Assembly: GCF_013315695.1 (NCBI RefSeq)
Contig: NZ_CP054353.1
Direction: 5' to 3' (one strand)
Length of the DNA: 64,000 bases
From: Escherichia coli
Lineage (GTDB): Bacteria; Pseudomonadota; Gammaproteobacteria; Enterobacterales; Enterobacteriaceae
In this document: one piece after another, positions 6,815 through 62,757 of the stretch
How positions within the stretch are numbered: position 1 is the stretch's first letter
Layout of the letters: each line of letters opens with the position of its first letter
Program-made: the position numbers and the translations under genes
Notes under the pieces: model-generated
Seen by the model: the letters and a program-made list of their open reading frames with translations, nothing else
What the model was told of the DNA's origin: nothing
The model's database searches: none

Positions 6815-6960
6815 AAGTAGATAAAAAAGGATAGATTTTGAATTCATTTGGCTTATCAGTCCGAATTCAGACAAATATAAACAAATCCCGCTTAATATTA
6901 AAATATACTAACTGGTAAAAGATATTACTTAAACGTGTAATTTCACTTTCTTTAAACAAC

Positions 6961-7030
6961 AAAAAACCGCCAAAATCAGGCGGTTATTTGTTGCTGGTTT
7001 GGTTCGCGGCCTTTCCAGCAGGTTCACTTG
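6961..7030. repeat. Intergenic repeat module, copy B (includes a terminator-like hairpin at 6961-6992)
   Basis: AAAAAACCGCCaaaatcaGGCGGTTATTTGTTGCTGGTTTGGTTCGCGGCCTTTCCAGCAGGTT is near-identical to 5917-5980. Confidence 0.75.
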
Positions 7031-7285
7031 TGTTGCATGAACAACGCAGGTGCCTCACAGCAAAAGAATACTCGCTGTTAAGAAATTTTGTGTCAAGTAA
7101 AAAACGAGTAATTATTTTTCGGTTAGCGTATTATTGACACCGACCCTTTCCGCCGTCTCGCAAACGGGCGCTGGCTTTAGGAAAGGATGTTCCTTGGCCG
7201 TAAATGCAAGTGTATCTCGTCGCTTGCTATCGCGGCAATATCGCCAGTGGTGCTGTCGTGATGCGGTCTTCGCATGGACCGCACA

Positions 7286-7411
7286 ATGAAGATACGGTGC
7301 TTTTGTATCGTACTTATTGTTTCTGGTGCGCTGTTAACCGAGGTAAATAATAACCGGAGTCTCTCCGGTAACAATTTATTGGTGGTTAACAACCTTCAGA
7401 ACAGCAGGTAA
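7286..7411 (+). CDS. Hydrophobic small ORF inside ryfA, 41 aa (45 aa from ATG at 7274): MKIRCFCIVLIVSGALLTEVNNNRSLSGNNLLVVNNLQNSR; candidate TimP-like small membrane toxin
   Basis: Open frame translated by hand. One predicted transmembrane helix. Lies within the terminated transcript. Weak ribosome-binding site. Below the 60-aa cutoff of the ORF track. Confidence 0.4.
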   Translation: MKIRCFCIVLIVSGALLTEVNNNRSLSGNNLLVVNNLQNSR

Positions 7412-7417
7412 GCCCGA

Positions 7418-7444
7418 ATGCCGCCCTTTGGGGCGGCATATTTT
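7418..7444 (+). terminator. Intrinsic terminator of the ryfA-like transcript
   Basis: ATGCCGCCC(tttg)GGGCGGCAT followed by ATTTT; overlaps the sseB stop codon on the other strand. Confidence 0.75.
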
Positions 7445-14674: not shown

Positions 14675-14785
14675 TGCTCTATAAACTCCGTACATCACTC
14701 AATGCAAGGAACCAGGCTGCCGGCTGGATGTACGACCGTGTTTACGGAGTGTTTAGCACTCCGGCCTGATTCTGAATTCTTTTTA

Positions 14786-45137: not shown

Positions 45138-45323
45138 ACAACAAAGCCGGGAATTACCCGGCTTTGTTATGGAATAAGGCGGTGCCTAACTCGACGTTTC
45201 GCCCGAGGGTTGATATAGCTACGCTGATATCAGAAGTTGGACGGCAGGCACCTTGTTGTGCGTCATTCGAATTTTATGTAGCACGTCCCGAAGGGGCTGA
45301 CATAAGTCGGTGAATGAGCCACT
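45138..45323 (-). ncRNA. glmY: GlmY small RNA
   Basis: Minus-strand sequence AGTGGCTCATTCACCGACTTATGTCAGCC...AAAGCCGGGTAATTCCCGGCTTTGTTGT matches GlmY as I recall it; terminator hairpin at the 3' end; lies directly upstream of glrK. Confidence 0.85.
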
Positions 45324-53628: not shown

Positions 53629-53925
<297 letters not shown>

Positions 53926-54118
53926 TATTCTGCTCTGGAAGTAGAGTGTTAATTATCTTATAGAGAAACCTTAACGCTATTATATTTATTTGATTGATGA
54001 AATTAGCATAATCATTCACTAAGTAAATTTATATAGTATCTGCCCAGACACTTATTTATAGTTATTAAAGGCGCGTCCGATTGGTTCACCGAACGCACCT
54101 TAAGTACGTTTCCTTGTG

Positions 54119-54199
54119 TTATAAGAACAGAAGGATCAGCTGTAAAACAGCAATGATGATTTTGATAACCCGTTTAATCAGGTATCGGCAATCAGTCAT
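54119..54199 (-). CDS. shoB: Type I toxin ShoB, 26 aa (MTDCRYLIKRVIKIIIAVLQLILLFL)
   Basis: Hand translation of the minus strand from ATG 54199 to TAA at 54119-54121. Confidence 0.85.
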   Translation of the reverse strand: MTDCRYLIKRVIKIIIAVLQLILLFL

Positions 54200-54520
54200 T
54201 CGTTTTTCCTTAAACAAGGAATGCAGCCGTTCAGATTAGCCCTTAATCACCCCAAAACTGAACGTGCGAGTTATTGGAATCGAGTGCTGCACTCCACACC
54301 AGAGCTTTGACGACACCACTCGTTTCAATGGGGGAATTCAGTGGCATGGTGTAAAGCACAGCAATATTGCCAATAACGAAACCGATTTTAATGTACTTAT
54401 CAAAAAGCGGTCACGTTAATCTTTTCATCAATGTCGATTTCTTCGTAAAGGCTCGCGTTTTTTATGTCAGAGATTGCAAGTTGCTTGTACAGGATAACGA
54501 AATTGATCCATAATCATTTC

Positions 54521-54595
54521 TGTTGGAATCGTGTGCTGCACAAAATTAAAGTTGTAAAGTGAACCCCCCCGTTCCTTACCAGTTCGGGGGTTTTA
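54521..54595 (+). ncRNA. ohsC: OhsC antitoxin small RNA (boundaries approximate)
   Basis: Promoter TTGTAC-N18-CATAAT; the 19-nt element TTGGAATCGTGTGCTGCAC at 54523-54541 is a direct repeat of 54274-54292 in the shoB leader, giving antisense pairing; intrinsic terminator at 54564-54594. Confidence 0.7.
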
Positions 54596-54619
54596 CTTTA
54601 TAAAGAGAACGGTATTTTT

Positions 54620-55000
54620 TTAACTTTCAATAATTACCGTGGCACAAGCATAGTGGCGTTCATCTGCCAGCGTTACATGCATATTTACAACGCCGAGCTT
54701 TTCCGCCAGTTTTAATGCCTCACCCCATAGCCGTAGCCGTGGTTTGCCGAGCTCATCATTGAATACTTCAAACTGATTAAACGCCAAACCATTGCGGATC
54801 CCGGTGCCAAACGCTTTTGCCGCCGCTTCTTTCACAGCAAAACGCTTTGCCAGAAAACGCACCGGCTGGTGGTGCGTTTTCCAAATTTCCCATTCGTTAT
54901 CGCTTAATACGCGGCGTGCCAGGCGCTCACCGGATCGGGCGATCACCGATTCAATGCGAGCGATCTCCACAATATCCGTACCTAAACCTAATATTGCCAT
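54620..55000 (-). CDS. acpS: Holo-ACP synthase, 126 aa
   Basis: [17 protein letters not shown]... Confidence 0.95.
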
Positions 55001-56482: not shown

Positions 56483-58095
<1,613 letters not shown>

Positions 58096-58293
58096 TCAGC
58101 ACACGAAACAGACCTGATATACATGGCTCTGCTAACTGCTTCGCTGCAGTTTCAGTTTACCGGTATATGGGGACCAACGCTGTTTCGTGTGCCGTGGCAA
58201 CCTGGAGGTGCCAACCTTAAACTTCGGGGGAATATTCTATACACAACGACGGGGGATGTCGTTAGCCACGGGAGATTTATCTCATAAATAATT

Positions 58294-59327: not shown

Positions 59328-61127
<1,800 letters not shown>

Positions 61128-61324
61128 AAAGTATGATTATTGTGCCTTAATGCCCGGTTAACCAGGCTTTTAGAAGTCGCTGTTCTGAGCTTAACGTCTG
61201 TATTAATAGAAACGCCGCATTCTACACTACAACATTGAGGCGAGGAAATGTTCATACCGTATGGATTGTGGTATCTGGAAACGTCCTCGCATTTGTTATG
61301 CAAAATGCAACAAAGCCAGTGAAA

Positions 61325-61804
61325 TCACTGGCTCGCGTCTTCCGAAGATGTTTCAAATCGCACAAGGCCAGGCGGCAAGGCCACGCTTAAGATGATCGGT
61401 TGCCATTCTGCCCGGGCAGCAAACTTACGCGAGTAGCCACGTGCAATCAGGAATCCACCAACGCCACCGAGAATCGCACCGCATAATGCTGCAATATCTG
61501 AAGCAAAGAGTAGCTGAAATAGTGAAGCGATGAGGAATAGTCCCACCAACGGCGACATATAAACCAGTAATGCGGAGCTAAGCAGGCTGCCTTCGGCGAT
61601 TCCTAATTCTACTTTTTGCCCCGGCACTAACGGTTCATCACAGGGTACGACAATGGTATGCGTAGTTTGCGGGCCAAGTTTATTCAACACGCGGCTACCG
61701 CAACCGGCGCGTGAAGCGCAGCTGCTGCATGAGGCTTTAACATCACAACTAACCAGCGCCTGCCCGTTTTCCCAGGAGACGACGGTAGCCCACTCTTTGA
61801 TCAT
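61325..61804 (-). CDS. rseC: SoxR-reducing system / sigma-E regulatory protein RseC, 159 aa
   Basis: Synteny downstream of rseB; 4-bp overlap. Confidence 0.92.
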   Translation of the reverse strand: MIKEWATVVSWENGQALVSCDVKASCSSCASRAGCGSRVLNKLGPQTTHTIVVPCDEPLVPGQKVELGIAEGSLLSSALLVYMSPLVGLFLIASLFQLLFASDIAALCGAILGGVGGFLIARGYSRKFAARAEWQPIILSVALPPGLVRFETSSEDASQ

Positions 61805-62757
61805 TGCGCTGCCCCGAACTTAATATTCTCGGCAATGCGTTTCGCCGTTTGCGGCGGCAGTTCACCGACAATGGTGATTTCGGCGTTATCACGTACGCTT
61901 GTACTGACGGTTCTGCGTCCGGTGCGCAACATCTGATCGGTGCTCGATGGCGTAGCGCGGTTAACGTTTACCGAAAAGCTGAATAATCCGTCGGAATAGA
62001 GACGTGATTCGATAGGCATGTTGTCCATCGTCGGTAGCGGACGTCGACTACTGGAAACTTCGCTAAAACCCTGTGGCAACCAGGTTGGCGTCCAGCTGAA
62101 TTTAGCTTTTTCACCTACAGGAACAGAAAGCAACGGCGGCAAATTTGCCTTCGCCAGCGTCTGCATACTGCTGCTGATATCCTGATTGACATTAAAAGCA
62201 ATCACGCGAAATTGTTCCAGCGTTTCACCATCGCGATCAAGGAGATCAACCCTCATCGGTAATTTCGATTCGGTGTCCATCCACACGATGTAGCTGTAGC
62301 GTGTACCATCTCGGGCAACCACGCGAATAACTTCGCAAAGACGATCAGCAATACGCGTGCGCCCGACGGAGATAAAGTCGTAGTAAGGAGAAAGGCGTTT
62401 GAAATCGGTATAGATGAGCGATGGCAGAGAATCAACAATGTAATCGCCATTAAGCGTGAACGGTTCAAGTCCCGGTTCAAAATAGCTGATCTCATTGCCG
62501 CGCTGTACCACTTCCCGGCGCGGGCCATCCATTTGCAACAATTGTGCAAGAGGACGGTTATCGAGGCGTGCATGTCGATAACGCAGAGACTCAACACCCT
62601 GTTTATTGATGCTGATGAATGACAGCTCGTAATTCAGTGACTGACTGGCCAGGTTCATCTGCTGTAATAACGCCCCGGACGCGGGAGTGGCCGAGGCGTT
62701 AGCAGAGAATAACAGGCTACCTGTCACTAATGACATGGCAAACCAAAGTTGCTTCAT
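61801..62757 (-). CDS. rseB: Sigma-E regulatory periplasmic protein RseB, 318 aa
   Basis: Signal peptide MKQLWFAMSLVTGSLLFSANASA. Confidence 0.95.
   Translation of the reverse strand: MKQLWFAMSLVTGSLLFSANASATPASGALLQQMNLASQSLNYELSFISINKQGVESLRYRHARLDNRPLAQLLQMDGPRREVVQRGNEISYFEPGLEPFTLNGDYIVDSLPSLIYTDFKRLSPYYDFISVGRTRIADRLCEVIRVVARDGTRYSYIVWMDTESKLPMRVDLLDRDGETLEQFRVIAFNVNQDISSSMQTLAKANLPPLLSVPVGEKAKFSWTPTWLPQGFSEVSSSRRPLPTMDNMPIESRLYSDGLFSFSVNVNRATPSSTDQMLRTGRRTVSTSVRDNAEITIVGELPPQTAKRIAENIKFGAAQ

Follow-up and report, generated by a model that had tools for sequence, protein, structure and literature searches.

A 26-codon frame on one strand and a small RNA gene on the other, each associated with a copy of the same 19-nt element, raise the question of whether they constitute a toxin–antitoxin pair and whether the two RNAs remain matched where the element differs between strains. 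The stretch of E. coli DNA analyzed here (hereafter, the window) is 64 kb long. With a probability of approximately 0.93, this locus on the E. coli chromosome is the shoB/ohsC type I toxin–antitoxin pair, present as an allele carried by ~31% of complete genomes, in which OhsC, by its 5' end, represses ShoB through the shoB leader. The system itself is already known, as the sequence-only reading had recognized, and the identity of ShoB, the Rfam match RF02495, the gene order, the promoters, and the ribosome-binding site (RBS) all agreed with that assignment. The genes and their signals are as follows.

54119..54199, minus strand: shoB coding sequence for a hydrophobic toxin, 26 amino acids plus stop (MTDCRYLIKRVIKIIIAVLQLILLFL), with a translation identical to that of K-12 b4687.
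54206..54221, minus strand: small hairpin predicted by RNAfold, holding the Shine–Dalgarno (SD) sequence (UUCCUUGUUUAAGGAA).
54385..54414, minus strand: shoB promoter from the consensus scan, −35 GTGACC (54414-54409) and −10 TAAAAT (54390-54385), 18-nt spacing.
54068..54101, minus strand: predicted shoB 3' terminator from folding, a 14-bp hairpin followed by UUUAAUAAC.
54522..54601, plus strand: OhsC antitoxin sRNA of 80 nt (Rfam RF02495), with ends transferred from the K-12 ncRNA via alignment.
54485..54514, plus strand: ohsC promoter from the consensus scan, −35 TTGTAC (54485-54490) and −10 CATAAT (54509-54514).
54554..54601, plus strand: OhsC 3' stem-loop and terminator, AAAGUGAACCCCCCCG...CGGGGGUUUUACUUUAU, from the Rfam consensus structure and RNAfold.

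The minus-strand frame described from the letters as a hydrophobic toxin of 26 residues was found to be intact, and its peptide is that of K-12 ShoB. An NCBIfam HMM search with this peptide matched no family; ShoB was identified by the peptide identity with K-12 and by the RefSeq annotation (WP_000128776.1) that a genome with 100% identity over 54000-54700 carries at the corresponding place. The SD sequence AAGGAA lies at 54211-54206, six bases 5' of the ATG. The RBS was reported to be 100% conserved (PMC11264685 Table 2), and the unpaired probability of the SD in the window allele was predicted to be 0.08-0.10 in both the full-length and the 5'-truncated mRNA. The promoter hexamers are identical to those tabulated for shoB (PMC11264685 Table 2), and the position of the −10 hexamer would place the transcription start near 54378. 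The hairpin at 54101-54068 and the following UUUAAUAAC are, from folding, likely the shoB terminator; the predicted length from start to terminator (~320 nt) agrees with that of the published full-length shoB transcript (PMC5668327). The stem differs from that of K-12 at three positions (54072, 54081, and 54092), and at each of these, read directly off the sequence, a Watson–Crick pair in one corresponds to a G·U pair in the other. A strict terminator scan over 53900-54700 returned no canonical terminator, and the terminator hairpins were taken instead from folding and the Rfam structure.

On the plus strand, the Rfam model ohsC_RNA (RF02495) matched 54522-54599 over its full length (1-77) with 88 bits against a gathering score of 50. 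The sequence-only reading had given this RNA its own promoter and terminator. The promoter was recovered (the consensus scan returned TGTACA-17-CATAAT at 54486-54514), and its elements have been surveyed among strains, with −35 TTGTAA in 66.8%, −35 TTGTAC in 33.1%, and −10 CATAAT in 100% (PMC11264685 Table 2). The terminator was recovered only in part: the 3' end forms a long imperfect hairpin followed by UUUUACUUU, which the strict scan did not call as a canonical terminator. The long, near-palindromic hairpin at 54554-54601 faces the converging end of acpS, whose stop lies at 54620 on the minus strand, and may serve as a terminator for transcription from either side.

The two genes are divergent and do not overlap, and they lie between yfhL and acpS, the usual position of this pair; the neighbors were read from MG1655 and from the genome identical over 54000-54700. 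The gene order is that of MG1655 (yfhH-yfhL-shoB-ohsC-acpS-pdxJ-recO), in which shoB is annotated as b4687 and the ncRNA ohsC as b4608. When the coordinates were compared, the features of the window aligned with the K-12 annotation, and the RefSeq shoB fell at the same position. A 701-nt query of the locus found a match in 5,425 of 5,426 complete E. coli genomes, all chromosomal and none on a plasmid, with a median of one place per genome. Every feature of the family that can be tested in sequence was present, namely the toxin frame, the OhsC homologue, the arrangement, the complementarity, and the promoters with the RBS. Further Rfam matches above threshold in the window were IS128 and ryfA (plus strand), the iscRS stability element (minus), GlmY (minus), rncO (minus), and AsrC, the antisense RNA of rseC (plus), at positions 6825-7444, 14676-14785, 45176-45323, 58011-58225, and 61009-61840; together they indicate that the window is an ordinary E. 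coli chromosomal segment.

The elements through which the two RNAs would pair are as follows.

54274-54292, plus-strand letters: repeat copy 1 (TTGGAATCGAGTGCTGCAC), in the shoB leader.
54523-54541, plus strand: repeat copy 2 (TTGGAATCGTGTGCTGCAC), nt 2-20 of the Rfam ohsC_RNA match.
54273..54292, minus strand: OhsC target site in the shoB 5' UTR (copy 1 extended by one G·U position), with the AUG 74-93 nt downstream.
54522..54541, plus strand: OhsC 5' pairing region (copy 2 plus the 5' G), with the allele-specific core at 54526-54533.
54277..54284, minus strand (letters of the plus strand): allele-specific 8-nt core of the target site, GAATCGAG here and AGGGTGCA in K-12.

The coordinates at which the 19-nt element had been reported were exact. 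It occurs in exactly two copies in the 64-kb window with up to three mismatches allowed, and a repeat search independently returned the same pair with a spacing of 249 nt. Such a repeat might be a product of chance or a duplication remnant with no regulatory role, as two-copy short repeats often arise by chance and a 14-nt repeat nearby looks like such a case. This explanation is scarcely credible here: in 100 dinucleotide-preserving shuffles, the expectation was 0.02 matches per window and none contained two or more copies, copy 2 lies exactly at the 5' end of an sRNA supported by Rfam, both copies have co-varied between strains (described below), and OhsC has been published to repress ShoB toxicity (Fozo et al. 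2008, as summarised in PMC5668327). The co-variation effectively refutes it. The 14-nt repeat (ATAACGAAACCGAT at 54373-54386 and ATAACGAAATTGAT at 54494-54507, 86% identical) was set aside as probably due to chance because it is not conserved in K-12 (~8 of 14 positions match). It overlaps the shoB start region and the spacer of the ohsC promoter.

Because the two genes are transcribed from opposite strands, shoB from the minus and ohsC from the plus, the direct repeat makes the two RNAs complementary. The near-perfect complementarity that had been anticipated, with RNA–RNA duplex prediction as its check, was confirmed by RNAduplex. For the OhsC 5' end and the leader site by themselves, 19 pairs were predicted for the window RNAs, 18 of them Watson–Crick and one a terminal G·U at OhsC nt 1, with a single U·U mismatch in the middle and an energy of −34.2 kcal/mol. 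The cognate duplex of K-12 was perfect (−41.4 kcal/mol), and duplexes across the two alleles were predicted to reach −21.5 to −23.0 kcal/mol with at most 11 contiguous pairs. Going by these predictions, the alleles may not cross-react. A duplex between the whole of OhsC and the whole shoB region (−51.1 kcal/mol against a mean of −42.4 kcal/mol for shuffled OhsC) was dropped as non-discriminating because long sequences always find pairs, and site-restricted duplexes and pair counting were used in its place.

The window and MG1655 are 95% identical over 54050-54640, with the differences unevenly spread. The two share the ShoB peptide, the position and divergence of the genes, the shoB promoter hexamers, the RBS, the OhsC −10 and 3' scaffold, and the pairing of the OhsC 5' end with the shoB leader over 19-20 nt. 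K-12 carries TTGAGGGTGCATGCTGCAC at both repeat copies, and the core of the window (allele W, GAATCG(A/T)G) is replaced by AGGGTGCA (allele K) at both sites, so that the alleles differ at seven of the eight central positions, and these substitutions occupy corresponding places in the two genes. The window further differs from K-12 in its internal U·U as against a perfect duplex, in the OhsC −35 (TTGTAC as against TTGTAA), and at 17 more fixed positions in the spacer between the promoters.

We fetched 80 further loci (7 species-representative genomes and 73 metagenomes) via the conserved core of the OhsC terminator. The region was complete in 74 sequences, which fell into a K class (n = 45) and a W class (n = 29, window included). 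The K class takes in K-12, Escherichia sp. E1V33, Escherichia sp. MOD1-EC7003, and a metagenome contig (QZLQ01000519.1) without the leader site, in which shoB is deleted; E. whittamii, typable at OhsC only, is also K-type. The K types of these other Escherichia suggest that K is the ancestral allele. No discordant locus was found among the metagenome and species loci typable at both sites, and exact-pattern scans for relatives beyond Escherichia returned only Escherichia. The deletion in QZLQ01000519.1 (~54070-54345) begins within the 5' hairpin of shoB and extends as far as the terminator of that gene, removing the toxin gene and leaving a K-type ohsC. A 231-nt contig from a marine alphaproteobacterial assembly (CACVCF010000286.1, labelled Terasakiella sp. 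PR1) carries a K-12-type ohsC 5' end and terminator, and E. coli has almost certainly contaminated that assembly.

Pairing across this variation was counted over seven distinct allele combinations in a 20-pair intermolecular helix. Standard pairs occupied 99.3% of the cells, the sole non-pair being the U·U of the W class. Five pairs were changed on both sides, and three were changed on one side in a wobble-compatible manner; none of 500 shuffles reached these values, and sliding the partner by 1-3 columns left 21-54% of the cells paired. All five double-sided changes derive from one W/K split. Every minor variant in the K class is a transition, and each leaves a Watson–Crick or G·U pair in place.

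Between the classes, fixed differences number six in each patch, at 54277-54281 and 54283 of the leader and at 54526-54530 and 54532 of OhsC, and the spacer (54368-54517) contributes 17. None was found in the shoB coding sequence, in the leader close to the RBS, in the 83 nt of leader that separate the patch from the promoter, or in the 3' half of OhsC. The leader patch is an island of change within otherwise constrained sequence, and the 8-nt core most likely comprises the nucleotides that set pairing specificity. The 5' arm of the shoB hairpin was also considered as holding a third co-varying site (54365-54370); this was not supported, as only 54368 is class-fixed and the K class has three versions of the 5' arm with the same core.

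The spacer holding the promoters (54368-54517) carries its 17 class differences in ~150 nt (~11%), a divergence unusually deep for a segment of the E. coli core genome. A CpxR box described in the literature (CB2) overlaps the ohsC −35 (54485-54503 in the window), and this stretch has several class-fixed differences from K-12 (54490, 54492, 54501, and 54503). From these sequence differences, CpxR control of ohsC may differ between the W and K alleles.

The alleles were then typed in the 5,426 complete E. coli genomes using 71-nt composite queries, each a 39-nt stretch around the leader site fused to OhsC nt 1-32, with the following results.

W leader with W OhsC: any match in 1,696 genomes, both sites in 1,693.
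K leader with K OhsC: any match in 3,729 genomes, both sites in 3,689.
W leader with K OhsC (chimeric query): any match in 5,407 genomes, both sites in 0.
K leader with W OhsC (chimeric query): any match in 5,419 genomes, both sites in 1.

The any-match counts of the two cognate queries sum to 5,425, the number of genomes with the locus, and correspond to ~69% K-type and ~31% W-type genomes. Carriers of the W allele include O157:H7 and Nissle. Alleles were matched in all but one of the 5,383 genomes typed at both sites. Partial matches numbered 3 for W/W and 40 for K/K. The two that were inspected (NZ_CP135595.1 and NZ_AP027800.1) account for at least some of these and are IS1 insertions that removed shoB and left ohsC, with IS1A in place of shoB between yfhL and acpS. 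One is W-type and the other K-type, and their IS1 elements have opposite orientations. These cases agree with the "interrupted" and "antitoxin-only" shoB/ohsC strains reported previously (PMC11264685).

The sole discordant genome, strain Z1323CEC0015 (NZ_CP148423.1), has a K-type leader, a W-type OhsC, and an intact shoB. A short W patch covers the ohsC promoter and the 5' end (seed) in a locus that is otherwise K-type; W markers extend over 54490-54533 and are bounded by K markers at 54470 and 54554, which gives a patch of roughly 44-83 nt. The non-cognate OhsC beside an intact shoB in this strain means that cells can live without a matched OhsC.

The U·U mismatch is fixed in the W class: megablast queries with a W site repaired at either gene matched 0 genomes, while the unmodified control matched 1,696. 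The W allele could thus be read as weakened or decaying, with the mismatch splitting the duplex into two halves of 9-10 bp and the control of shoB by OhsC lost, as the W cognate duplex is 7 kcal/mol weaker than that of K-12 and no W genome has a perfect one. We consider such decay improbable. The W class retains an intact ShoB frame, RBS, both promoters, and the OhsC scaffold, both W sites are kept in the 1,693 genomes, and the duplex still has its 19 pairs around a single mismatch; one specific mismatch that is fixed and followed by no further decay points to a tolerated or tuned state.

The matched alleles could also reflect linkage and history only, that is, two old haplotypes of ~250 nt whose repeat copies were homogenized by short-patch gene conversion. 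Because the sites are only 249 nt apart, the concordance at the genome level is partly plain linkage, and the fixed differences in the spacer between them, the single split underlying all five compensatory pairs, and the mosaic patch of Z1323CEC0015, which shows that short-tract recombination happens at this locus, all fit such a history. Linkage leaves unexplained why the two cores agree within a haplotype (at 7 of 8 positions in W and 7-8 of 8 in K) when 7 of 8 positions differ between haplotypes. The same patch sequence within a haplotype requires either selection for complementarity or conversion between the copies. Conversion is hard to square with stable differences between the copies (A/T fixed in all W and A/G common in K), and 19 nt equals or falls short of the minimum repeat length that RecA-dependent exchange usually needs. 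The independent minor variants of the K class, being transitions that keep the pair, likewise argue against linkage as the sole cause, which we regard as unlikely. We retain the reading in which the OhsC 5' end acts on the shoB leader and the pairing is kept through two matched alleles.

For K-12, OhsC was reported to repress ShoB toxicity, the full-length shoB mRNA (~320 nt) to be translationally inert, and a 5'-processed form of ~280 nt to be active (Fozo et al. 2008, as summarised in PMC5668327 and PMC5397157, for the repression; PMC5668327 and PMC5397157 for the mRNA forms). Folding of the shoB mRNA predicted one further element relevant to these forms.

54270..54377, minus strand: predicted long 5' hairpin of the full-length shoB mRNA (mRNA nt 2-109), with the OhsC site in its 3' arm.

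The predicted fold of the whole shoB mRNA had a z-score of −5.67 against shuffles. The architecture of the 5' hairpin was predicted to be alike in both allele classes, and as its helices are nearly invariant, it is a thermodynamic prediction to which covariation adds no support. In 12 of 13 variants, the allele-specific 8 nt lay in or at the edge of a predicted internal loop, with a 17-bp helix above it and a conserved 8-bp helix at its base; in the remaining variant, shoB is deleted. The predicted 5' arm (mRNA nt 2-33) falls within the published stretch of ~40 nt that is removed, and the inactive full-length and active processed forms fit a hairpin with this arm. When 28-45 nt were removed in silico, the accessibility of the site rose from 0.25 to ~0.30 in the window and from 0.13 to 0.29-0.42 in K-12, a modest and inconsistent effect. 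In the predicted fold of OhsC alone, nt 1-9 were unpaired.

These elements are consistent with the following mechanism. The shoB gene would be transcribed leftwards from ~54378 into the ~320-nt mRNA with a leader of ~179 nt, and OhsC would be transcribed rightwards from 54522 as the 80-nt sRNA. In the primary transcript, the target site would be locked in the 3' arm of the 5' hairpin and the SD sequence held in its small local hairpin. Once ~40 nt were cut from the 5' end, the other arm would be gone and the region freed as a ribosome-loading (standby) site, a mechanism proposed for shoB (PMC5397157). OhsC nt 1-9 would nucleate on the loop nucleotides and block the loading site, with the first 20 nt of OhsC pairing with the leader at 54273-54292, ~75-90 nt upstream of the start codon, and repressing ShoB synthesis. 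OhsC may compete at the standby site and/or trigger cleavage, as shown for tisB/IstR-1 and zorO/OrzO, and the 8-nt center of the site would act as a specificity code changed together in both genes.

The placement of the sRNA site in the distal 5' UTR is common to shoB/ohsC, tisB/istR-1, zorO/orzO, and dinQ/agrB (PMC5397157). The tisB/istR-1 pair resembles shoB/ohsC as a divergent, non-overlapping type I pair in which the sRNA 5' end pairs over ~20 nt far upstream of a sequestered RBS (for shoB, predicted to be sequestered), and in which the primary transcript is inert and the 5'-processed form active (PMC7708055, PMC5668327). It differs in having no sequence relationship to shoB/ohsC and in the control of tisB by LexA/SOS; moreover, the standby site and pseudoknot of tisB were shown experimentally, whereas standby has only been proposed for shoB (PMC5397157). 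The zorO/orzO and zorP/orzP pairs of O157:H7 have the same architecture, with the sRNA 5' end as the specificity determinant, and their pairing region differs from copy to copy and from strain to strain, with complementarity preserved inside each pair (PMC3919570, PMC11264685). Of the zor/orz loci, 99.8% were verified to have cognate pairing (PMC11264685), and ohsC of EDL933 was cloned and used as a chimera scaffold (PMC3919570). The zor/orz pairs often occur in two or more copies per genome, and their variation was explained as insulation between paralogues. This explanation is inapplicable to shoB/ohsC because the latter is single-copy.

The new part of this analysis is incremental and consists of the matched allelic dimorphism, the fixed internal mismatch, and one natural mismatched strain. 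Matched strain alleles may have been shown earlier, in Fozo 2008 or the 2012 review (doi 10.4161/rna.22568); the allele strings were not found when searched for in the supplement of the 2024 paper. According to a 2024 paper, the pairing potential across shoB/ohsC variation had yet to be validated, a gap that the present census addresses by computation only. A 26-codon toxin and an 80-nt sRNA proved recognizable from raw sequence, and a structural proposal is offered for why 5' processing activates shoB. Strain Z1323CEC0015 and the fixed mismatch of the W class provide ready-made test cases.

By computation, the pairing of OhsC with the shoB leader is kept in essentially every genome via two discrete matched alleles. 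We tentatively propose, as a possibility of less than even odds, that these are two non-cross-reacting alleles defined by a co-changed 8-nt code in or beside an internal loop of the inhibitory 5' hairpin, that they make lineages incompatible at this locus, and that the U·U mismatch is a tuned attenuator and not damage. If this were true, a recombinant that swapped only one partner would lose repression, and the locus would constitute a small built-in incompatibility between E. coli lineages despite being a single copy without a paralogue.
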